A stretch of DNA of 64,000 bases from Candidatus Poribacteria bacterium (GCA_965198235.1 OZ240248.1:4544001-4608000); one strand, 5' to 3'; shown: positions 16,771 through 58,690, numbered from the stretch's first letter. The notes: generated by a model not told the origin, from the letters alone. Numbers and translations are program-made.

Positions 16771-17625
16771 TCATACAATATTCGGGGGTCTACGCGGTGC
16801 CGTTGGTTGGATAATCTTGCGTTGATCCGGTGTCAAACGTGCCAATAACTCCTTCGAATGCGGATAATCAAAACGCTCACGGACATATCTCGGAGAATAG
16901 CGATAGACGATCGACCGACGATACCCCTCATTCGTCCGTTCTGCTGACCCGTGTGTAATCGCGTCTGTGAACATCACCACATCTCCTGCCTTGAGATAGA
17001 TCTCCTTCGTCCCAAAAGCTGTCCCTGCGGGTTTACCGCTCACACCGTCGTAAACCAAGCCTTTCCCATCGACCTTCAAACGCGGGTGAACCTCTGTGCA
17101 TTTATGACTCCCTGGCACCAATACTGGCGCGCCATCGCCCGGTCCAATATCGTCCAGTGCCATCAGGACGTTAATCTGTCCTACCATCCATTCGCCGGTG
17201 TTCTCCTGTCGGAATGTCAGGTAACTCAGCGGGACATGTCCACCACAATGGATATGAATGAAACCGCCGGGACCGCGGACGTTAAGGAAATTCTCGTGGA
17301 TAGAAAGCCCGTTGACTTCGTGGACGTATTTTCGTACCAGACCGATCCATGACGGATGGTCGATGAGTTTCTGAAAAACGTCCCCACCCTCAATGATATT
17401 CTGGAAATTCACGCCGTTTTCGATGTTGTAGGTATGCGTTTCGATGTTCCCGAGCCAGCGTGGGATCCGTCTGTCCTCGGTTTCTTCCTCCCAAGGATCT
17501 TCAACGTAAGCCCACTGCGCATCGATCCACTCGTTCATTTCATCCAGATCGGGTTTTGAAATCGCATTCTCCAAAATCAGATAGCCTTGTAGGTCGAACA
17601 GATAATCTTTTAACTCTTGGTCCAT
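16771..17625 (-). CDS. Phytanoyl-CoA dioxygenase (PhyH) family 2OG-Fe(II) oxygenase
   Basis: YLFDLQGYL, DG...VPGSHK, KAGDV..F....HGS, RR motifs; start set at MDQELK after GGAG. Confidence 0.88.
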   Translation of the reverse strand: MDQELKDYLFDLQGYLILENAISKPDLDEMNEWIDAQWAYVEDPWEEETEDRRIPRWLGNIETHTYNIENGVNFQNIIEGGDVFQKLIDHPSWIGLVRKYVHEVNGLSIHENFLNVRGPGGFIHIHCGGHVPLSYLTFRQENTGEWMVGQINVLMALDDIGPGDGAPVLVPGSHKCTEVHPRLKVDGKGLVYDGVSGKPAGTAFGTKEIYLKAGDVVMFTDAITHGSAERTNEGYRRSIVYRYSPRYVRERFDYPHSKELLARLTPDQRKIIQPTAPRRPPNIV

Positions 17626-24144: not shown

Positions 24145-26115
<1,971 letters not shown>

Positions 26116-26190: not shown

Positions 26191-26931
26191 ATGAAAGCGT
26201 TAAGTATTGGATTGGGTATACTTCTCTTCACCTCCTCTGTTTGGGCTGGTACATTTGTGGAAACTTTTGATGAGGATGTTTTAGCGGATTGGCAGGCACT
26301 TAACGCGCATGATGCTGCACTCGGTTCGTGGGAAGTCGTTGATGGTGAACTTGAGATGATAAACCCTGGAGGGGGTATCCGTTTACTTACGACGGGTGAT
26401 GAAACATGGCAAGATTACAGTATCGAGGTTAATGTCAAACCTCTTGAAAAACGCGGCCCCGGAAATATCAGTATTGTCGCACGAGTTGAAGGAAGCCGGG
26501 TAGTTTGGTGTACGATTAGTGATCTTTTCTTAAACGATCCTGAATCAAAAGCGATGTGTAGCAGTCGTGACTTTGCTGGAAACATAGGTCAATTGCTGTC
26601 TATGAAAGCTCATCGGCTTTTAAAATTGAATAAATGGTCTAAACTCAAGTTGAGCGTTAGAGGAGATCACTTCATTTTTTTGATAAATGGAAAGAAAATT
26701 ATGGAAACAGGAGATCCTTTTATCCTTCTACATGATGGTGAAGAACTCATGATAAAAACAAAAGACCTCGCGTCCCACCCGACAGGCGGTGCCGGTTTCG
26801 GTCTCGCGAATTATACAGCGAGATTCGATAATATCACCATCACCGGTGAGAGTATCCCAAACAAGGGTGGATTATCGGTATCACCTCAATCAAAACTCGC
26901 AACGACTTGGGGACAGTTGAAGCAGTTTTAG
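26191..26931 (+). CDS. Secreted ConA-like/DUF1080-type protein with KLATTWGQLK tail
   Basis: Signal peptide; GDETWQDYSIEV..., ARFDNITITG; C-terminal SVSPQSKLATTWGQLK. Confidence 0.75.
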   Translation: MKALSIGLGILLFTSSVWAGTFVETFDEDVLADWQALNAHDAALGSWEVVDGELEMINPGGGIRLLTTGDETWQDYSIEVNVKPLEKRGPGNISIVARVEGSRVVWCTISDLFLNDPESKAMCSSRDFAGNIGQLLSMKAHRLLKLNKWSKLKLSVRGDHFIFLINGKKIMETGDPFILLHDGEELMIKTKDLASHPTGGAGFGLANYTARFDNITITGESIPNKGGLSVSPQSKLATTWGQLKQF

Positions 26932-28535: not shown

Positions 28536-29369
28536 CTACTTTGCCTTAAGCGCACCCCATGTCGTTGTCAATTTGCCTGCAACATCAACGATCAGAATAT
28601 CTTTGGCATTCATGACTGTTTTTACCTCTGCTGCTGTTAACGCGCGATCGTATACCGCCAATTCGTCAAGCAGACCTTTGTAGAGATTTGCGCCGCCGTT
28701 TGTGTCCGGACGACCGCCAATTTCAATGTTGTTGTCGTTCCAGACCATCACGGGACCGTTCTTTGGTACATCTTTCTCACCCTCAAGTTTTCCATCAAGG
28801 TAGATCTGGATCTTCTCTCCGTCAAAGGTACCGACGACGTGATACCAAGTCTTGGGTTTTAGACCTAAATTAGGCAGCGAAAGTGTGGTATCAACATCGG
28901 CACCGTTAAAAGGTCCCATCTTCTTCTGTCCGGAATTGATATACCAATACAATCCTTCACCGCTACCGAGCCCAAATTCAACGTTATCGTCACTTGTACC
29001 CGATTTGTCGTAAAAGATGTTTCCATAGACGTGTCCATCGCCGAGACCGACTTTTGATATTTCAAAAGGATGTATCCAAACAGCAACAGTCAGATGTTCC
29101 ACGTAAACTTCGCTCTGACCACCGGGATCGATTATCAGTGCGGGACCCTCCGAAAATTCGATTGCACTCCCCACCTTACCTTTGGCAACGAACTTCGCGC
29201 TATCGTGAAGTTCCGCTTCAAACCCTTTCGGACCGACATCCTTAGCAACCTTACCTTTTCCCTCATTAAACGGCATGTAAAAGTGTAAGCCTTTTGTCAC
29301 TTGAGCGGTTGCATCGAAAGTTAAAACACAAAATGCAAAAACCGCGAGCATCCAGAAGTATCTTCTCAT
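28536..29369 (-). CDS. Secreted LamG-like jellyroll protein with KLTTTWGALK tail
   Basis: Signal peptide from MRRYFW; WYHVVGTFDG..IYLDG, IGG, G.LDELAVYDRAL. Confidence 0.88.
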   Translation of the reverse strand: MRRYFWMLAVFAFCVLTFDATAQVTKGLHFYMPFNEGKGKVAKDVGPKGFEAELHDSAKFVAKGKVGSAIEFSEGPALIIDPGGQSEVYVEHLTVAVWIHPFEISKVGLGDGHVYGNIFYDKSGTSDDNVEFGLGSGEGLYWYINSGQKKMGPFNGADVDTTLSLPNLGLKPKTWYHVVGTFDGEKIQIYLDGKLEGEKDVPKNGPVMVWNDNNIEIGGRPDTNGGANLYKGLLDELAVYDRALTAAEVKTVMNAKDILIVDVAGKLTTTWGALKAK

Positions 29370-29579
29370 TTTGTCGACTCCTTTTCTATTTCTCATCGCC
29401 TGTTTCAAAATTAGCAAAATATCGTGATAAACGTTTGCTATTTTAATAGTTATGCCAGTCTTTATCAAGAAAAAACCGGCGCGTTCCAATCTCCCATGCA
29501 GATATGGAAGCCGAAAATCGAAAATTAAATTTTCACTCATCTGAAACCGATTTGCAAACCTAACGTTTTATACTTTATA

Positions 29580-30329: not shown

Positions 30330-31397
30330 TTACACCTTCTTAATTCCTATTCTTTTCTCTATTTTCTCCGCCAAAATCTTGAAATCTTGGCGTGCAGTAT
30401 TAGCAGCGGCTGCGTGACTGCCGAAGGCACCATCTGCTGTGGTGAGATGAAAAATCGGTTTACGTTTTTCTTGTGCCATAGGAATGAGACTACGGTAGTG
30501 CTTAAGGGTGGCGAGGGAATTTTCGAGATCCTTTTTCGGAGTCGCAGCATAGGGACCTATTCGATTTCCTAGGAGATTCCGAGCGTATTCTTTAGGCATC
30601 CGATTAACCCATTTATCGTAAGCTTTAACAGGGCGTTCTAAACGCACCCCGTGTTGCTGCATTATGTACCCGATAGGTTTCATACCCCCTTTTGGAAGGG
30701 GAAAATTTGGCACATTCTTGTTATCTTGTTTGCGTTGCCAATCCGACCAGTTGTCCCGCCTGCGTTGCCAATCCTCTCGCCACCGCTCGAGGGTTGGACC
30801 CAGGTTTTGCAGCCCACGGAGCGAAAATAGATCTGTTCCAAGCGGAACCACAACGTAATCGCTTGCAATCAATGCTGAGCGGTTGATAGCACCCAAATTG
30901 GGACCAACATCAGCTAAAATAATTGAGGCATTCATTTCCGTAGCACTTTGCTGCATAATAGTTGAAAATGCCGTTAGTATTCTGAAGGACCTGTGAAGAC
31001 TGGTGGATCCCATGGCGTTTGGCCATTCATTAGATAGGGTGTCCTCAAATTCTGCGAGTGCTAAGTCGCCCGGAATCAATCTTAGGTCACTCCGCCCGAA
31101 GTCCAATTGCCATAAAATTGATTGTAGATACGGCAAGTGCAGATCACCAACTTCTATTAGCGGTTTCACACATTGGAAGATTGTGCTTCTAGAAGCAGAA
31201 ACAGCATTACTTTCGTCCCAGAGGCTTTCCAAACGTTCCTCGTCCAAAAACGCAGCGGTAAGATTGGCCTGCGGGTCAAGATCGCAGGCAAGCACTCGAT
31301 GTCCGAGGTCGTGTAGCATCCATGCAAGATGGTAGACGAGCGATGTCTTACCAACACCACCTTTGTTGTTGAAGAAAGTTAGAACTGGGACAGGCAT
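30330..31397 (-). CDS. ParA/Soj-family ATPase (long variant)
   Basis: FFNNKGGVGKT deviant Walker A, DLDPQANLT, DVGPNLGAINR. Confidence 0.9.
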   Translation of the reverse strand: MPVPVLTFFNNKGGVGKTSLVYHLAWMLHDLGHRVLACDLDPQANLTAAFLDEERLESLWDESNAVSASRSTIFQCVKPLIEVGDLHLPYLQSILWQLDFGRSDLRLIPGDLALAEFEDTLSNEWPNAMGSTSLHRSFRILTAFSTIMQQSATEMNASIILADVGPNLGAINRSALIASDYVVVPLGTDLFSLRGLQNLGPTLERWREDWQRRRDNWSDWQRKQDNKNVPNFPLPKGGMKPIGYIMQQHGVRLERPVKAYDKWVNRMPKEYARNLLGNRIGPYAATPKKDLENSLATLKHYRSLIPMAQEKRKPIFHLTTADGAFGSHAAAANTARQDFKILAEKIEKRIGIKKV

Positions 31398-31411: not shown

Positions 31412-32629
31412 CTACTTTTGTGCTGATTTTATGGTTACTTTCACGAAATTATCAAGAATTTCAAATTCTGGTTCAGGATGCCCTGCCTTTTGCAGCAGAT
31501 TTCTAGTTATCTGTATTCCGCTGCCAAACTTCTGGACATAACCAAGGACTCTCATCGCTTCTGCCAGATTTGGATTGCGATAATCAATCAAATGGGGCTT
31601 ACCAAAATTTTCTGCTGTTATCGCGCCAAAAGCACCGCCGGGGCTTAAAACTTCAACATGGTCACTGAACCAGTAAACATGAACGGGGGCGTTGGTCCCT
31701 TCATAAGTTCTATGCATAACAGCGTTCCGGATGATTTGTTGCAACGCTGGAATAGGATAGAGCTCTGTACGTTGTTCGATAGAGCTACTCGTAAAATCAA
31801 CTGCCGTGCGGTTATGTGCTATCAGTTTATTATCCAGACGGTGGAGAATGTCAGGGATCGTCCCTCTGATCCCCTCGCTGTCAAGAATGTCGTTATCGTC
31901 TATCAGCTGAATATTATCAATTCTGAGAAATTGCACATAAGCTCCTGGAAGAAAATCCTGTGGGTTTTTGCCGAGTACCAAAATTCCCATCACAGTCGCG
32001 AATGGCTCATCAACTGAAGCAATCATCTTTGTTACTGCTAGTCGTTCTTCAAGCGTACGTTCATTGGCTTCTAATATATCAGGGTCAAAGGCTTGTGGCA
32101 GATATTCGTGCTCAAATTGGGTGAGATGGAGATCAGATAAATCTGATATAGGAATCGGTTGAATATCGAAAAAAGCATCTTTATGCCGACGCTTTTCAGT
32201 GAGAATCCTTTCATCCTGCGAGGTAGCGATACCTCGGCGAGGTCCAGTGCGAATGCAGATAGTACCCTTGAAGCGAACTGGCGGTGAGTCGGTTGGTTGC
32301 ACTTTAACTACTGCCACTTCTTTATCTTGTAGCACGCGCTTTTCTACCGTCAAGGAGGGCGGCGGCACGATATTCCCGTCTGTTTTCATGTCCGCCAATT
32401 GCCGAAGCAATTCGTCTGTAACTGGCAAACCCACAATAGTTTTGTCTTTTCTCACTCCAACGAAAATGAAGCCAGGTTTTTCGTGACGGGGCAAATCATT
32501 GGCAAAAGCGCAGATGGCTTCCCGGATCTCTTTCGGAGCATCACCAGACAAAGATTCCTTGAACTCGATGCGATCAGATTCATCAGCGTCAATGATTTGT
32601 AGCAACTCTACATCTGTAAATTGTCGCAT
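31412..32629 (-). CDS. Schlafen/AlbA_2 domain + HATPase_c_4-like protein
   Basis: ESDRIEFKES...ICAFAN....G.IFVGV (AlbA_2); NAVMHRTY, SPGG, YRNPNLAEAM..LGYVQKFGSGI; start at MRQFTD. Confidence 0.85.
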   Translation of the reverse strand: MRQFTDVELLQIIDADESDRIEFKESLSGDAPKEIREAICAFANDLPRHEKPGFIFVGVRKDKTIVGLPVTDELLRQLADMKTDGNIVPPPSLTVEKRVLQDKEVAVVKVQPTDSPPVRFKGTICIRTGPRRGIATSQDERILTEKRRHKDAFFDIQPIPISDLSDLHLTQFEHEYLPQAFDPDILEANERTLEERLAVTKMIASVDEPFATVMGILVLGKNPQDFLPGAYVQFLRIDNIQLIDDNDILDSEGIRGTIPDILHRLDNKLIAHNRTAVDFTSSSIEQRTELYPIPALQQIIRNAVMHRTYEGTNAPVHVYWFSDHVEVLSPGGAFGAITAENFGKPHLIDYRNPNLAEAMRVLGYVQKFGSGIQITRNLLQKAGHPEPEFEILDNFVKVTIKSAQK

Positions 32630-32753
32630 TTTGATTCCCGTCGTTTTGATGCTTGTTAGCCATTGTATTTTCCATAACAACCAATTATCGTGGATACGAC
32701 AAGTATACCATGGATGGCCGGATTTATCAAGGCAATTTTTATACTACGAAAAA

Positions 32754-34445
32754 TCAATATAGCACATGCACTCGATTCTTTCCACGGACGGTTTCGTCTG
32801 ACATCGCGATCGGGACCTCAACGACAACGATCAGCGCGCCCTCCGTACTTATCGCGAGTGTGTCGTAGGGAAGCTGCCCCTCTGTGCGGTAGGTGTACAG
32901 ATACTTCGCCAAGCCGTTACCCTCTGCTGTCAGATCAAACACTGACACCCCATGGAGGCTCTCATTCGGGTCTTGTGCTCGCTTGGAAACCGACAGTACG
33001 GCATAACGATCCTCCGCGTCAATGCGTAAACCTTGTGGCATATTCTCAAGTTTCCACTGCCAGATTTTTTCGCCACGCCACGAATAGGCGAACAGTGTCA
33101 TCCCGTTGGGATGTCCTGCTGAGGGCTTTTGTGCGCCTTTCCGGAGATGATACGGGATGTACGTGTCCCCTGTAACGAAGAGTGCTGCGGCATCCGTCGC
33201 GCCGATCATGCCAGTAGTTGCGATGATAGGGATGCCACTTACCTCCAGCGGAGTCGCCAGGTTTTCCTGCCATATCGGTTCCGCCTGATTCACATCAAAG
33301 ATGAATGCGCGTCCATCGTCCGTTGTCACGTTGATGAACTTACCATCGGGAGACATGCTGACCCCTCGCCAGAAGGTGACTTGCGGGAAATACTCGCGCA
33401 GTGGTTGAATATCCATGTGCCACTTTTCTGTTCCATCTTCTGCGTTGAGAACAGAGAGCTTTCCATTGCCAGCATCGTTTTCATCCGTTGCACTTCCTTG
33501 CAGGTTATGCCCACTATCTGTTAGAAGCGCGAGTGTTTTTCCATCAGCACTTACGTCAAACCAGCGCATCACCTTCGGCACCGCGCCCTCACGAGTCCAT
33601 TTCCAGATAACATTTCCCGTTTTTCCATTGAATCTATAGAGTTGGGATTTCTTAAGTGGCGTGTTATCCTCTGTCCACGAGTGCACGCTCGCCACTAAAA
33701 GGTCTCCGTTCGCCAACGTTCGCATACACGATGGACCGGGGTAGCTTACCCACGCGTAGACGCTATCGGGATTACTCAGCGTAGAGGTTTCAATATCATC
33801 GGCGGTGCGATACTTCCAACGAAGTGTCGGTTTATCGGTTGTCAGGTCGTAGCAGTAGATAAATCCATCTGCCGCTTGTTCGCCAATATAGAGTTGCGTA
33901 TTACCGCGACTGAACGCCATCTGCTTCACGTAGCCTTCCGAGATACGAGTTTTCCAGAGAATTTCACCTGTCAACGGTTGGAGTACCGCGAGATGTCCAC
34001 TGTCGGTTGCAATCGCTAATTTAGGCGTATTTCCATGCCCTAAGGCAAGTGCTGTGGGTTTCGCGGGCTGACGAAGGTTTTCCATCAACGACAAAAGCCC
34101 ATCTAACTCAACGGTCCGGATGAGATACGGCTCAGGCTTCAGCGGTGAAGTCGCTGTCGTTTCGCTATCATTCAAGTGAAATTGGTAATTTTGGTTCGGT
34201 TGCCATGCAAATTGGAACAAAACGCGATTTGCATCAAGCCTTTGGATTGCGGGTATTTCGGTTAATTCGTGCGTTGTGCCGCTCGTCTCGAATGCAATGT
34301 TGATTTCGCCTGCAACGTCGTTTTTGTGTTTCGTTTCAAACACTACGCCTGTCCGGACCCAAGTGACGTTCATATCTGCCGTCGTGACGTTAAGCGGTAA
34401 GGTGATGAGCAGCCAAAGTAGACTCAAGAATTGAATTCTCTTCAT
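32754..34445 (-). CDS. Secreted PQQ-like beta-propeller protein (third gene of B12-riboswitch operon)
   Basis: Signal peptide; repeated TG..LWK/DG...W blade motifs. Confidence 0.8.
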   Translation of the reverse strand: MKRIQFLSLLWLLITLPLNVTTADMNVTWVRTGVVFETKHKNDVAGEINIAFETSGTTHELTEIPAIQRLDANRVLFQFAWQPNQNYQFHLNDSETTATSPLKPEPYLIRTVELDGLLSLMENLRQPAKPTALALGHGNTPKLAIATDSGHLAVLQPLTGEILWKTRISEGYVKQMAFSRGNTQLYIGEQAADGFIYCYDLTTDKPTLRWKYRTADDIETSTLSNPDSVYAWVSYPGPSCMRTLANGDLLVASVHSWTEDNTPLKKSQLYRFNGKTGNVIWKWTREGAVPKVMRWFDVSADGKTLALLTDSGHNLQGSATDENDAGNGKLSVLNAEDGTEKWHMDIQPLREYFPQVTFWRGVSMSPDGKFINVTTDDGRAFIFDVNQAEPIWQENLATPLEVSGIPIIATTGMIGATDAAALFVTGDTYIPYHLRKGAQKPSAGHPNGMTLFAYSWRGEKIWQWKLENMPQGLRIDAEDRYAVLSVSKRAQDPNESLHGVSVFDLTAEGNGLAKYLYTYRTEGQLPYDTLAISTEGALIVVVEVPIAMSDETVRGKNRVHVLY

Positions 34446-34540
34446 TCTGATATTCCTTGTGTTTGTATTGTAAGTTTTCTGCGTTGTCTAAATCACGGAT
34501 TTTGTGTATCGCCGATGTAGTTGAAGACAGGGACGATGGT

Positions 34541-36514
34541 TTAATCTGCCACGCGCCATAAACCTCTCCCCAACCGCGCACCGAGAAGTACGCCGATAAA
34601 TGTATAGATGAACCCCTCTATCAAAATTCGGAGAACGATATACCAATCGGCGTAGAAAAGCCGATAGAACAGTATAGAAAGTTGAAAATCGACATAAACG
34701 GAGAGCGCGTCGCAGATGCCCAATACGACTGCCCACGCCAGTAAGCTGCGACTCCGCACCAGTAAGAATCCTGTTTCCAGTAAGAGTACACTTGTGCCGG
34801 TGTAGACGATCGCCATCGGTGTGAAAAGCCCGAACGTTACGCCTCCCAAAAGCAAACGTACCGCAGAAACAAGCAAGATTACGCCACTCCCTTTCGCGCG
34901 TTTTTGATTGGTAGCCTCCGCGTTTCTTGGATCTCCGCCGATGTAAATAAGTAACGCTGTCAGCAAGGCGTAGTAGAGCGTCTCGTTGATTAAGCCAGTC
35001 AGCAATACAGAGACCGGACCTAAGAGGGCACGGACTAAATTAAGAAACAATGTTGATGGAACCATCACTGCCACAAAAACCGTTGTGCTGAACAGGGCAA
35101 TCACAATTAGATGTTTCGTTGTGAAACCTGCGAAAAGTCGCTCGTGGAACCGCAGGACAATTGCGAAACCGATGCAACTGCTGATGATTGCTAATAGACT
35201 CACGAGCAATGCTTGTTGATTTGGAACGCCCAGGTGCAACGGACGTTGTTGGCGAAGAATCGTCGCGTCACTTCCCCAAACCTTTACCGTAATGTCCCGT
35301 TGGTATTCTCCAGGGATTGCCTGTTCTGGCTTACCTTGCTTTAAATATATCGGGTGAAAATAGATAGGCAAAGGAATTTCTGTAACCGTGCCACCCGGCA
35401 GGCTCGCAAACGCTACGCTTCGATTCGTCCCCCCGTTCGTTGTCTCTGGAGGTGCGAGAAAGGGGATAGTTGTGGGAGGGCTTTGTAAGCCCGATTTCAT
35501 ATCCGTGTTGGTTGATGACACAACCACATGGATCGTTTCTTTACCTTGGTTGCGGAGTTGGACTGTCTGATAAGTTGTGGGCTCGAATGCATTGGTCTGT
35601 GGCGTTCGGAGCCAACTGAATAACGGTCGTGGGTAGTAGATGGTATCCTCTCGCTGCTTCGGGTCCGCCGTACCCGTTGCGTCTGTAGGCATCTGAATTG
35701 ATTCTATGGAGAGGTGTTCAGCGATCTCAGAGATAGTTGCTATCCGCAGTTGCACGGTTGCTTGTTGTTCCCATGCCTGCCCTGCATCTGTTGTGAAGCG
35801 GATAATCCCTGAAATCTCCTGTGTGTCCGATCGGTTTGCTATGGATGTTTTCAAAACTAATTCACGGTACCACACCTCCGATGCGATACCAAGTCTACTG
35901 GTGGTAGAGAGGCAAGTTCTCGCATCCATTGTTTCACTCTTCCAATCTGCTGGAAAGCGGACCGCTGTTACGGTTGATGGTAGACAAAGTTCCAAATCAA
36001 AGGTCGTTGGTACATTCCCGTTTGTAACGAGGACCATAGCAGTCATTTCACTTTCATGCAAAACAAGTGCTTTCTGATCGTTTCCTGATGCATTTCCTAA
36101 ATCCGATTCAATTGCGGCACCATAGGGAATAGCGATCTCTAAATTCCCCTGTGTGTATGTCCGAGGCGCGGTCACGCTTTGAACGGTAACATTCCCGGTG
36201 GTTAAGGTCGCCTCAAACCTATAGGTCTCCCCTTCGTCCCATTCAAAATAAAGGGATTCTGTCTGACGGGGTGGCACAGGAAAGTTGAGTTGTGCGACCA
36301 TCACATCATCAAGATTAAAGGCACTTAGGTGTCGTATCGGTACTGTCGTTCCAAATTGCACCTTTGCCCCCAATGAAAAAAACGTCACCTGCCATGAGAT
36401 CGGCTCTTCTTTGGGGGTTGAGGCGCAACTAAGCAAAGAAACGAGCAGTGGCAAGACCCATAAGACCTGCTCTATTGTAGATTGATATGGTGTTCGATTC
36501 AGAGCGTGTGTCAT
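34541..36514 (-). CDS. Membrane protein: large extracytoplasmic region + C-terminal ECF S-component-like TM domain
   Basis: Lipobox-like LLVSLLSC; about 6-7 C-terminal TMs with FTTKHLIVIALFS and ending G.LLGARL. Confidence 0.7.
   Translation of the reverse strand: MTHALNRTPYQSTIEQVLWVLPLLVSLLSCASTPKEEPISWQVTFFSLGAKVQFGTTVPIRHLSAFNLDDVMVAQLNFPVPPRQTESLYFEWDEGETYRFEATLTTGNVTVQSVTAPRTYTQGNLEIAIPYGAAIESDLGNASGNDQKALVLHESEMTAMVLVTNGNVPTTFDLELCLPSTVTAVRFPADWKSETMDARTCLSTTSRLGIASEVWYRELVLKTSIANRSDTQEISGIIRFTTDAGQAWEQQATVQLRIATISEIAEHLSIESIQMPTDATGTADPKQREDTIYYPRPLFSWLRTPQTNAFEPTTYQTVQLRNQGKETIHVVVSSTNTDMKSGLQSPPTTIPFLAPPETTNGGTNRSVAFASLPGGTVTEIPLPIYFHPIYLKQGKPEQAIPGEYQRDITVKVWGSDATILRQQRPLHLGVPNQQALLVSLLAIISSCIGFAIVLRFHERLFAGFTTKHLIVIALFSTTVFVAVMVPSTLFLNLVRALLGPVSVLLTGLINETLYYALLTALLIYIGGDPRNAEATNQKRAKGSGVILLVSAVRLLLGGVTFGLFTPMAIVYTGTSVLLLETGFLLVRSRSLLAWAVVLGICDALSVYVDFQLSILFYRLFYADWYIVLRILIEGFIYTFIGVLLGARLGRGLWRVAD
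35468..35498 (+). repeat. REP-like palindrome inside CDS
   Basis: agttgtgggagggctttgtaagcccgatttc, identical to intergenic 38703-38733. Confidence 0.85.
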
Positions 36515-36611
36515 GCAATTTCATAAAAGGACTGAATTATTGCGAATACATGGAACTTGTAAAAGGCGAGATGTTTTTGCTGGAGTGTTTCCCTCGCCTA
36601 TGAATGCTAAG

Positions 36612-37346
36612 TTAGAGCCCATGACCGATCAGCACCAGATCAAGGATATTAACCACTTTGTCTCCATTGACATCGGCAAGTATTCCGGCACCCTCGTCAC
36701 CGAGAAAACGACCTGCGATTATCATATCTTTCATGTTGACGAACCCGTCATTGTTGATGTCTTCGCGTCGCGGGATAATCCTTGCAAACCCCAAAATAGA
36801 GCCGGCGGGTCCAACGTGATAGGTTCGCAGGAGAGATGCATCTGCTACGTCCATGACGTGAACGAAATCCTGTCCGCCGCCCGACCAGTCGGGTTGGGTG
36901 ATATAGAGATTTCCATCTGGGGCAAAAGTCAGTCCTCCACTGACAGGAGTATCTGCATCGTTACTGAAATTAGCGATCGTATCGTCTTTATCCCGAATCC
37001 AGTCTCGCGCTGCGATATCATAGACAAGCAACCCAGGATTTTGCCAACTGCCTTGGATAAACAACTGTTTTTCTGAGCTGAAATGGAGTATTTCATTGTC
37101 AACAGCCCGTCTCTCATTCGATTCCTCCAGATTGATGAGTGAGAGTGAAGCGGTGATGCCCAAGTCGGGTTGTGTCAGGGCATTTATGACGACTGTTAGG
37201 TTCTGAACCTCTGTCTGTCCAAAAGCAGGACTAACGAGGTGTGTCAAAAGGATTGCCCCTACTATTAGGAACGAATAACATGAGAAGTGCCGCCGAGAGA
37301 CTTTTCTAGACGCGCTTGCAAGCGGTGCCGCTACAACTTTGTTCAT
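36612..37346 (-). CDS. Secreted partial beta-propeller + dockerin-like double EF-hand protein (first gene after B12 riboswitch)
   Basis: GGAGGT SD; signal peptide; GLTFAPDGNLYI blade; EDINNDGFVNMKDM and ADVNGDKVVNILDLV. Confidence 0.75.
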   Translation of the reverse strand: MNKVVAAPLASASRKVSRRHFSCYSFLIVGAILLTHLVSPAFGQTEVQNLTVVINALTQPDLGITASLSLINLEESNERRAVDNEILHFSSEKQLFIQGSWQNPGLLVYDIAARDWIRDKDDTIANFSNDADTPVSGGLTFAPDGNLYITQPDWSGGGQDFVHVMDVADASLLRTYHVGPAGSILGFARIIPRREDINNDGFVNMKDMIIAGRFLGDEGAGILADVNGDKVVNILDLVLIGHGL

Positions 37347-37366
37347 TAAAACCTCCGTAATGAAAC

Positions 37367-37399
37367 AAAAAACCCCTGCTTTCATCGGAAAGACAGGGG
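37367..37399 (-). terminator. Intrinsic terminator (riboswitch expression platform)
   Basis: Minus strand cccctgtctttc-cgat-gaaagcagggg-tttttt. Confidence 0.85.
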
Positions 37400-37545
37400 A
37401 GGAAGCGGCACTCTGTGTGAGGCGTATCCTGTAAGTGTGTAGAAGAATTTCATACCTTATATCGGTATTTCTTTTTTCATCTGATCTGACAGGATACTGT
37501 GCTCTGTTCCACCGCTTTCCCGCGAAAGCAGATGCGTGAAACATG

Positions 37546-37756
37546 ATTCAGGCAGGTCTCCTGACTTCCGATCATTTAGCGTAGTTACAAGCCAAAACTC
37601 GCACTACAGAGTTCCGCTGAACCTTCCCATCAGTTATCTGACAGTGGTTTTTCAACGGATAATTGCCTTTGATAGAGGCTGATCGTTCACAGTGGCGGGG
37701 CCGTGGCGGATTCTCACCGCGCTTCCCTATTCTCCGTAATTCGGCACCTGAACCGT
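37546..37756 (-). ncRNA. Cobalamin (AdoCbl-type) riboswitch
   Basis: Minus strand aggtgcc...aatagggaagcgcggtgagaatccgccacggccccgccactgtg...ccactg...gggaagg...aagtcaggagacctgcc (B12 box). Confidence 0.95.
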
Positions 37757-37974
37757 TAGTTTATTCAATTGTAATACATATATTATATCACGTTGCACTA
37801 TCTTTTGCAAATATTTTTTTCCAATGGGTGTGTAAATATTTCGGCAGCGGGTTGTCAGAAATAGGCTTCTTCGGTCTTAGGCAAATACGGGGCACAAACT
37901 AACAGTTTCTGCTACAGGGTAGCCCTTGTCATAATTGCGTGTCAAAAACTTTACACACCCTTTCCAATAAAAAT

Positions 37975-38170: not shown

Positions 38171-38220
38171 CTGAGATAGAGACTGAAAATCGTCATTTTT
38201 TATTTTTAAGTCCTGTTGAA

Positions 38221-38262
38221 GCCTTATGCACACCGATCCCGGTAGCATAGGGTATTTTTTTT
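38221..38262 (+). terminator. Attenuator terminator
   Basis: gccttatgc...gcatagggt followed by a + T8, about 53 nt before the hisI start. Confidence 0.85.
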
Positions 38263-38315
38263 GCAAAGTTCGCAGATTGCCAAAATTTGCTGTTGAAAAT
38301 GAAGAGGAGAACTCA

Positions 38316-38696
38316 ATGAAAATTCTATCGGAACTTAAGTATGACCGCGATGGTTTAGTCGCTGCAGTCATTCAAGATGAAACAAACAACGAAATCCTAA
38401 TGGTAGGCTATATGAACGCTGAGGCGATAAGTGAAACGCTGAGTACAGGGCGCGTCTGCTTCTGGAGTCGTTCCCGTCAAAAGTTGTGGATAAAGGGGGA
38501 GACTTCAGGGCATACACAGACGGTTAAATCTATCGCAGTAGATTGTGACGGTGATGCCCTGCTTATAAAGGTTGAGCAGAAGGTAGCGGCGTGCCATACG
38601 GGTTATCGCTCCTGCTTCTTTCGAGAAGTTTCCCCCGACGGAGAATCAACGCATGTAGTAGGTGAAAAGATTTTCGATGCAGATGCCGTCTATTAG
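38316..38696 (+). CDS. hisI: Phosphoribosyl-AMP cyclohydrolase
   Basis: WSRSRQKLWIKGETSG, DCDGD, ACHTGYRSCF; GAGGAG SD. Confidence 0.96.
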   Translation: MKILSELKYDRDGLVAAVIQDETNNEILMVGYMNAEAISETLSTGRVCFWSRSRQKLWIKGETSGHTQTVKSIAVDCDGDALLIKVEQKVAACHTGYRSCFFREVSPDGESTHVVGEKIFDADAVY

Positions 38697-58616: not shown

Positions 58617-58690
58617 TCGGGGCGACTGGATTCGAACCAGCGACCTCTTGAACCCCATTCAAGCGCGCTTCCGGGCTGCGCCACGCCCCG
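58617..58690 (-). tRNA. tRNA-Pro (anticodon GGG), CCA not encoded
   Basis: cggggcgtggcgcagcccggaagcgcg cttga atGGGgt tcaag aggtcgctggttcgaatccagtcgccccga. Confidence 0.96.

Follow-up and report, generated by a model that had tools for sequence, protein, structure and literature searches.

A riboswitch-headed operon of Candidatus Poribacteria encoding a stalked ECF S-component, a candidate system for cobamide import

In this study, we found that an operon of a Candidatus Poribacteria bacterium probably serves the riboswitch-repressed import of cobamide (vitamin B12) by an energy-coupling factor (ECF) transporter of new architecture. The operon lies in a 64,000-nucleotide stretch of DNA (GCA_965198235.1, OZ240248.1:4544001-4608000; G000:C1:4544001-4608000 in our numbering), hereafter the window, and positions are counted from its first letter. 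The genome comprises 5.17 Mb in 2 contigs and is 96.3% complete. On the minus strand of the window, a cobalamin riboswitch and an intrinsic terminator are followed by three co-oriented genes, which were designated as g1, g2, and g3. The middle gene, g2, is predicted to encode an ECF S-component with a large stalk outside the membrane. Since the genome appears to need B12, has none of the synthesis genes that we looked for, and carries its sole cobalamin riboswitch in front of a transporter subunit, import of cobamide is the best reading of the operon. Full-text searches found no published description of the g2 family or of the operon; subscription journals and preprint supplements were outside their coverage.

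The aptamer was identified with Rfam as RF00174 at 37534-37766 (-). It scored 93.4 bits against a gathering score of 31.5 (E 6.3e-22) and matched model positions 1-189 of 189. An earlier note, made from the sequence alone, had placed a canonical B12 riboswitch at 37546-37756; the full-length match bears this out with the wider limits given here. A whole-genome search found no second cobalamin riboswitch, and the copy in the leader was the only one found. A sigma-70-like promoter, TTGCAA-17-TATAAT, may lie at 37782-37810 (-), about 16 nt upstream of the aptamer; it comes from a consensus scan only, with 10 of 12 matches. Between the aptamer and g1, at 37367-37399 (-), is the intrinsic terminator that the earlier note had also proposed, which would form the expression platform. 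It is a bulged 11-pair hairpin with a U-run, reads CCCCTG(T)CTTTC-CGAT-GAAAG-CAGGGG at 37399-37373 and then TTTTTTGTTT, and is part of the minimum free energy fold of the leader (z -3.98). A simple terminator scan did not list this hairpin, probably because of the bulge. The ribosome-binding site GGAGG of g1, at 37352-37356 (-), directly precedes its ATG at 37346. The presence of both the aptamer and the terminator suggests that the operon would be switched off by B12 through a transcription-terminating riboswitch.

The genes are separated by gaps of 97 nt (g1-g2) and 95 nt (g2-g3), and a scan listed no terminator-like site on the minus strand in either gap. An aptamer homologue (detected by blastn), g1, g2, and g3 occurred together in 77 of 80 poribacterial loci; in the three loci with no aptamer homologue, the contig ends before its position. 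Parts of the region were also found in four metatranscriptome runs of one sponge study. The contigs of run X1 covered 28 of 30 bins, and an X2 contig (36450-36889) bridged g1 and g2 with 18 differences and one gap, which indicates a related strain. Such contigs show presence in RNA libraries, not a transcript, its ends, or its level. Contig depth was highest over the aptamer; it was not used for attenuation or expression, since there is one figure per contig and that figure sums related strains.

The g2 gene (34541-36514 (-)) encodes a protein of 657 aa without any Pfam or NCBIfam match. Residues 1-30 (36425-36514 (-)) form a signal sequence with a lipobox-like LLSC (Cys30), a relaxed lipobox was present in 37 of 106 members of the g2 family, and g2 is probably lipid-anchored. 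An AlphaFold2 model was built on an alignment of 106 of the cluster representatives of the family (predicted local distance difference test (pLDDT) 89.5, predicted template modelling score 0.82). The model begins with an N-terminal helix, continues with four beta-sandwiches over about residues 40-430, and ends in a membrane domain made of helices (433-656), and the hydrophobic helices of the sequence fall within the last of these ranges. According to the model, residues 31-432 (35219-36424 (-)) form an extracytoplasmic stalk of four beta-sandwich domains. An extra transmembrane helix, residues 433-462 (35129-35218 (-)), assigned from the model and structure alignment, joins the stalk to the core and would carry the chain from outside to the cytoplasmic start of the core. 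The six-helix S-component core itself, assigned by structure comparison, spans residues 463-657 (34544-35128 (-)) and bears the conserved motif LYRLFYADWY. The LLSC, the large ectodomain, and the C-terminal membrane domain of this 657-aa protein, all of them features named in the earlier note, were thus seen again.

The same note had likened the membrane domain to an ECF S-component. The domain was folded alone (residues 425-657; pLDDT 93.5) and compared with about 48,000 PDB representatives, and the best 13 structural matches were all ECF S-components. The top match was 5edl (Z 13.6-14.0, root-mean-square deviation (rmsd) 3.0, 170 aligned residues, 18% identity), which we take to be YkoE of Bacillus subtilis, with a thiamine-related substrate. 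Further matches were RibU (Z 11.9), 4hzu_S (11.8), NikM2 (4m5c; 10.2), and BtuM (8ovv; 9.2), with CbiM (5x3x; 8.4) and CbrT (6fnp_E; 6.4, rmsd 4.5, 128 aligned residues) lower in the list. The alignment with 4m5c begins at model residue 11, in the extra first helix, and that with 5edl begins at residue 39. Foldseek with the membrane domain also put 5edl on top (E 6.8e-3), as its sole notable match. In a Pfam check of 18 family members, 4 matched PF09819 (ABC_cobalt) at 15.4-18.1 bits against a cut-off of 25.2 and the window protein gave no match; by the cut-off of PF09819 itself, the g2 family thus falls outside it. The S-component fold expected from BtuM and CbrT is upheld, with 5edl and the sub-threshold PF09819, not BtuM or CbrT, as the closest relatives. 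Two other searches were set aside: Foldseek on the whole model returned generic Ig-like matches (integrin legs, macroglobulins) and was uninformative for the membrane domain, and the ESM Atlas gave weak leads (score 0.75-0.76). These results suggest that g2 is an ECF S-component of an undescribed kind, distinguished in the model by its large outward-facing stalk.

The second stalk domain (about residues 120-261) resembles cohesins, pilins, and macroglobulin domains, with cohesins at Z 10-11.5 among many beta-sandwiches. A search of PDB sequences with the g2-family profile (E up to 1) returned unrelated chains and one borderline cohesin match, which was to 2zf9 (ScaE) in this domain (E 0.0066). 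None of the 18 members checked had a Pfam cohesin match. We treat the modelled cohesin likeness as a lead only.

The first gene, g1 (36612-37346 (-), 244 aa), encodes a secreted protein that appears to be the remnant of a BtuG-like propeller (YncE/DUF5074-type) followed by a C-terminal type I dockerin. The dockerin matched Dockerin_1 (PF00404) at residues 195-240 with 24.5 bits against a cut-off of 22.9. The earlier description of g1 as a partial propeller with a dockerin-like end holds for the dockerin, whereas the partial state is corrected: compared with its orthologues, g1 has lost about 207 codons from its interior, in frame. The relatives of g1 measure about 415-425 aa. When g1 was aligned to an orthologue, residues 38-92 matched 1-55 and residues 89-244 matched 259-414; orthologue positions 56-258 are missing, and no complete seven-bladed propeller is left. 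DNA comparison with orthologues placed the junction of the deletion (about 621 nt) at 37073-37076 (-), and a short repeated stretch of the FS(S/A)E type flanks it. An RNA-library contig (X1 record 7; 942 nt, 36593-37534) spans the junction with 0 mismatches, so the deleted form exists in nature, although the sample is possibly not independent of the assembly. Since an open reading frame (ORF) of at least 380 aa occupies the place of g1 in 77 of the 80 related loci, this lineage may be losing the component of the operon that would act first in capture. With about 207 propeller residues gone, the g1 of the window genome is probably inactive.

For the intact form of g1, a profile of 36 full-length orthologues (family A5) was compared with the PDB. 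It matched BtuG in 8blw_B (E 4.3e-13), 8p97_B (1.9e-5), and 3dsm_A (4.3e-5), and also matched 8ptf and 8ptd at 6e-13. Of these entries, 8BLW is BtuB1G1, 8P97 is BtuB3G3 with cyanocobalamin, and 3DSM is apo-BtuG2 (PMC10404256). The comparison with BtuG that the earlier note had proposed thus makes the g1 family a sequence-profile relative of BtuG. DUF5074 matched the orthologues below threshold, and a lipobox was found in 0 of the 36. The BtuG match is the most direct link to corrinoid capture, and it holds for the operon type, not for the remnant in the window.

The third gene, g3 (32754-34445 (-), 563 aa), encodes a secreted PQQ/BamB-like beta-propeller, as the earlier note had stated for a PQQ-type fold. 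It matched PQQ_2 (PF13360) with 43.1 bits against a cut-off of 27.6, and the g3-family profile found PQQ-like propellers and BamB in the PDB. A g3 homologue was present in 133 of 160 loci, and most of the misses are short contigs. An N-terminal domain of about 90 aa is common to g2 and g3; it gave 169 matches in the loci and was confined to these two families. Its co-variation between the S-component and the propeller (82 loci with both, 44 with neither, 7 discordant) was dropped as an argument, since it involves few lineages and both kinds of discordance.

As the earlier note observed, no ECF A or T gene lies beside the operon in the window. We add that one of each is present elsewhere in the genome. 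A single CbiQ-family (EcfT) gene lies at C1:3616612-3617541 and a single fused EcfAA' gene at C1:3750776-3752371. The fused protein passes the NCBIfam ECF ATPase cut-offs and is 38.6% identical over 554 residues to the ATPase of a distant locus, L096. No BioY, ECF_trnsprt, or CbiM (PF01891) was found in the genome; of the S-components tested for, this leaves g2 as the sole candidate. In a phylum sample of 61 genomes, the g2 family was present in 55; it occurs in every genome of families f1-f4 and is absent from the remaining 6. A CbiQ gene was found in 55 of the 55 family-bearing genomes, exactly one in each except for one genome with two. An EcfAA' match (E <=1e-60) was found in 54 of the 55, the miss being G043, which is 90% complete. 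AA' and T are adjacent in most genera and apart in the genus of the window. A B12-binding radical SAM gene (B12-binding, Radical_SAM, and DUF4070) overlaps the start of EcfAA', and G000:C1:3748810-3752371 spans both. In 30 of 30 poribacterial loci examined, all of family f1, the radical SAM gene immediately precedes EcfAA', and in 11 of these loci EcfAA' is immediately followed by EcfT. As a separate observation, the EcfAA' matches of 8 same-genus genomes (loci L166-L175) were flagged with 1-3 stop codons, although their open frames are almost complete; the alignments probably overhang the gene start, where the two genes overlap, and pick up the stops there.

The B12 context of the genome was examined by profile and tblastn searches. 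MetH, a PduO-type adenosyltransferase, and the B12-binding radical SAM enzyme are present, and the only MetE-like genes are short. CbiC, CobD/CbiB, and CobS were not found in the genome, and tblastn with cluster-derived proteins gave no genome match for CobN, CbiZ, BtuR, ChlI/D, or a BtuF-like protein. The sole FecCD match in the genome was weak, at 28.5 bits. CobS was found in none of the 55 genomes that carry the g2 family, as against 4 of the 6 that do not. These results suggest that the window genome is unable to make or remodel B12 and yet needs it, and Poribacteria appear to be B12-auxotrophic.

An exhaustive profile search with the g2 family gave 346 representatives of 50%-identity clusters at E <=0.001, 247 of them at E <=1e-10. 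Source names included Poribacteria, Planctomycetota, Desulfarculus baarsii DSM 2075, Desulfatibacillum aliphaticivorans, Deferribacteres, Anaeromusa, and one Euryarchaeota metagenome-assembled genome, and all source names seen for members read 'hypothetical protein'. The record names of 11 of the best 80 metagenome loci contained 'human-gut-metagenome'. Gene-level annotation was performed for 11 representative distant metagenome loci. An ECF ATPase and/or a CbiQ-type T gene stood in the gene string of the S-component in 10 of the 11, the exception being the Poribacteria-like L131. The survey of gene neighbourhoods suggested in the earlier note therefore places ECF genes beside the homologues in other phyla. 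The ATPase is usually a fused double-ABC (ATP-binding cassette) protein (EcfAA') of 500-600 aa. A g3-type propeller is a recurrent neighbour of the S gene; that of L088 is 31% identical to g3 over 514 residues. TonB-dependent receptors were found near the S gene in L083, L095, L096, L101, L105, and L110. CobN was near it in L088, L096, and L100, ChlI/ChlD-like genes in L100 and L101, CbiZ beside it in L100, BtuR upstream in L095, and a Peripla_BP_2 protein in L105. In L105 we also observed a cobalamin riboswitch at 17094-17266 (+) (105 bits), 6 kb downstream and past the ECF cluster, in front of two small ORFs and the gene for methylmalonyl-CoA mutase, an uncommon target.

We propose that g2 would act as the substrate-specific S-component of an ECF-type ABC importer, with its stalk reaching into the periplasm, and that it would be energised by the single EcfT and single fused EcfAA' encoded elsewhere in the genome. 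By analogy with BtuF, which serves BtuCD, g3, whose family accompanies the S gene across phyla, would probably capture the ligand outside the membrane and pass it to the S-component. Full-length g1 orthologues would probably add a first capture step, and their dockerin could perhaps dock on the cohesin-like second stalk domain. The substrate, the contacts between the proteins, and the use of the distant A and T genes are what we infer from these comparisons.

Inner-membrane routes for B12 known so far are BtuFCD, ECF-CbrT, BtuM, and BacA, and the proposed system shares features with several of them. Like ECF-CbrT of Lactobacillus delbrueckii (6fnp), which takes up cobalamin and cobinamide, it would be an ECF importer whose S-component carries cobamide. 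However, the S-component CbrT consists of the six helices alone and belongs, in a Gram-positive host, to a shared group II module, whereas g2 has an extra helix, a 400-residue stalk, and a dedicated propeller partner, and its family has its own fused AA' and T genes in other phyla. BtuM has the same fold and takes part in Gram-negative B12 uptake, but it acts without an ECF module and binds cobalt via a cysteine; unlike this solitary protein, the g2 family comes with EcfAA'T genes of its own. Neither CbrT nor BtuM showed any detectable sequence similarity to g2. PF09819 is the only Pfam family that any g2 member approaches, and its member 5edl, in contrast to g2, is without an ectodomain or a propeller partner. 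The proposed soluble binder that feeds an inner-membrane ABC importer resembles BtuF-BtuCD (type II) of E. coli, as does the TonB-dependent receptor upstream in L083-type loci; however, the folds are unrelated and the operon has no Peripla_BP_2 or BtuC-type gene. In common with g2, CbiMNQO and NikMNQO (5x3x, 4m5c) belong to group I of the ECF systems, have one more helix at the N-terminus of the S-component, and possess accessory extracytoplasmic parts; CbiMNQO is often under B12-riboswitch control (PMC13119186). Unlike CbiM and NikM, g2 has no free N-terminus, PF01891 is without a match in the genome, and cobalt is of no use to the host for making corrins. Bacteroides BtuG, which the g1-orthologue profile matches, is a propeller protein that forms a lipoprotein lid on an outer-membrane TonB-dependent transporter and captures corrinoids before they reach the transporter (PMC10404256). 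In contrast, the g1 orthologues have no lipobox, end in a dockerin, and are encoded with an inner-membrane ECF S-component, and the g1 of the window has lost most of the propeller.

Several observations weigh against cobamide import. The g1 gene is broken in the window genome itself, and BtuM and CbrT are not the nearest S-components in structure. The operon encodes no outer-membrane receptor, and tblastn of the genome with cluster-linked TonB-dependent receptors gave plug-length matches only; an ORF from this search at C1:846260-847243 has only 328 aa. The split between CobS and the g2 family follows a single clade boundary and thus counts as about one event. Beyond the phylum, 33 distant metagenome loci were scanned with Rfam, and 22 of them, those with 2 kb or more of sequence before the S gene, are assessable. 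A co-oriented riboswitch stands ahead of the gene string in 4 of the 22: L114 and L131 (both Poribacteria-like), L095 (riboswitch, TonB-dependent receptor, S, ABC ATPase), and L083 (riboswitch, TonB-dependent receptor, EcfAA', propeller, S). The homologues are linked to the riboswitch in nearly all poribacterial loci but in few of the distant ones, and the substrate outside Poribacteria is therefore less certain. In addition, the CobN proteins of L088, L096, and L100 and the ChlI/ChlD-like genes pass NCBIfam cobaltochelatase cut-offs. For those members, cobalt or another tetrapyrrole is thus possible and fits as well as B12.

These neighbours, which lie beside the S gene in L088, L096, L100, and L101, would suit import of cobalt or of a cobalt/nickel chelate, in which the stalk and the propeller are metal or metallophore receptors, as NikK/NikL or CbiN are for NikM/CbiM. 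B12 riboswitches often govern cobalt transporters in B12 producers, NikM2 and CbiM align with g2 including the extra N-terminal helix, and the sub-threshold PF09819 matches carry the name of a cobalt family. However, searches of the window genome yielded no gene for corrin-ring synthesis, for a cobalt chelatase, or for nucleotide-loop assembly, so B12-regulated cobalt import would serve nothing there. CbiM and NikM hold the metal via a free N-terminal amine, whereas this end of g2 is fused to a 430-residue stalk. The PF09819 name is an annotation and not a tested cobalt function, 5edl, its solved member, is presumably a vitamin-type S-component, and the g1 family matches the corrinoid binder BtuG. 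We consider metal import quite improbable. An unlikely reading, and one that bears on the wider family more than on the window, is a general tetrapyrrole importer for heme, metal-free corrinoid precursors, or cobinamide, in which CobN-like proteins insert or remove the metal and the poribacterial member is a B12-regulated special case. The TonB-dependent receptors score alike against the receptor models for heme, siderophores, and B12 and reach the cut-off of none, and 18 of the 22 assessable distant loci have no riboswitch. The CobN-like proteins HmuS and BtuS are reported to be heme dechelatases encoded in receptor operons (PMC12583661, PMC6460266). Against this stand the recurrence of riboswitch control in poribacterial, L095, and L083-type loci, CbiZ and BtuR as neighbours of the S gene, and the match of the g1 orthologues to BtuG.

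The riboswitch might instead call up a B12-sparing nutrient, methionine or a precursor, when B12 is scarce, as with B12-riboswitch metE or nrdDG. B12 elements ahead of B12-independent isozymes are on record (PMC545781), and the genome relies on MetH with its short MetE-like genes. We hold this to be very unlikely in view of the BtuG-like partner, the CobN, CbiZ, BtuR, and TonB-dependent-receptor neighbours in other phyla, and the B12-radical-SAM gene beside EcfAA'; moreover, no methionine-related neighbour was seen. The operon would encode no importer at all if the Ig-like stalk, the dockerin, and the propellers belonged to a B12-regulated envelope or adhesion assembly and the membrane domain were merely S-component-like. 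The stalk domains do resemble pilins, cohesins, and macroglobulin domains, and dockerin proteins are common in Poribacteria. The S-component matches, however, extend over the entire domain and score well above unrelated helical proteins, the family lies consistently beside EcfAA' and EcfT, and the family-bearing genomes have one EcfT each apart from the genome with two. An assembly of this kind is thus hardly to be expected.

Cobamide import through g2 is therefore the reading that we retain. If it is true, it would add an inner-membrane B12 route, give Poribacteria, which are sponge symbionts, a defined dependence on B12-producing neighbours, blur the line between ECF transporters, which have no binding protein, and classical ABC importers, and bring capture of the BtuG type together with a system of the inner membrane. 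Since most microbes need B12 and few produce it, its uptake shapes communities such as sponge and gut microbiomes. A bolder version, which we offer tentatively as possible rather than probable, is that this ECF transporter would be the first to carry an extracytoplasmic receptor of its own and to have a soluble binding partner dedicated to it. The stalk would hold the PQQ-like propeller and, through a contact of the dockerin-cohesin type, the BtuG-like one, and the two would form a periplasmic relay comparable to BtuF for BtuCD; the family would then be a major inner-membrane route for cobamides or tetrapyrroles. The idea can be tested directly, since members occur in the cultured Desulfarculus baarsii DSM 2075 and Desulfatibacillum aliphaticivorans.

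Other features of the window were recorded. Downstream of g3 lies g4 (AlbA_2/Schlafen and HATPase_c_4; 31412-32680 (-)), followed by a ParA-like ATPase (30330-31397 (-)). A g4 homologue is found downstream of g3 in many related loci; given its separate promoter-like site and its apparently unrelated function, g4 was not counted as part of the operon. On the other side of the operon, RNA-library contigs of three runs carry a 38-nt insertion relative to the window at 38174-38176, a strain variation just upstream of an ORF (38226-38696) with a PRA-CH (HisI-type) domain. A 656-aa ORF at 24145-26115 (+) looks by eye like ThiC, as we presume, and a gathering-threshold Rfam scan reported no thiamine pyrophosphate riboswitch in the window. 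A tRNA gene lies at 58617-58690 (-) (58.8 bits). Two secreted lectin-like proteins, at 26191-26931 (+) (3keto-disac_hyd) and 28536-29540 (-) (Laminin_G_3), share a near-identical C-terminal motif, KL(A/T)TTWG(Q/A)LK, which may be a lineage-specific C-terminal sorting or anchoring signal.

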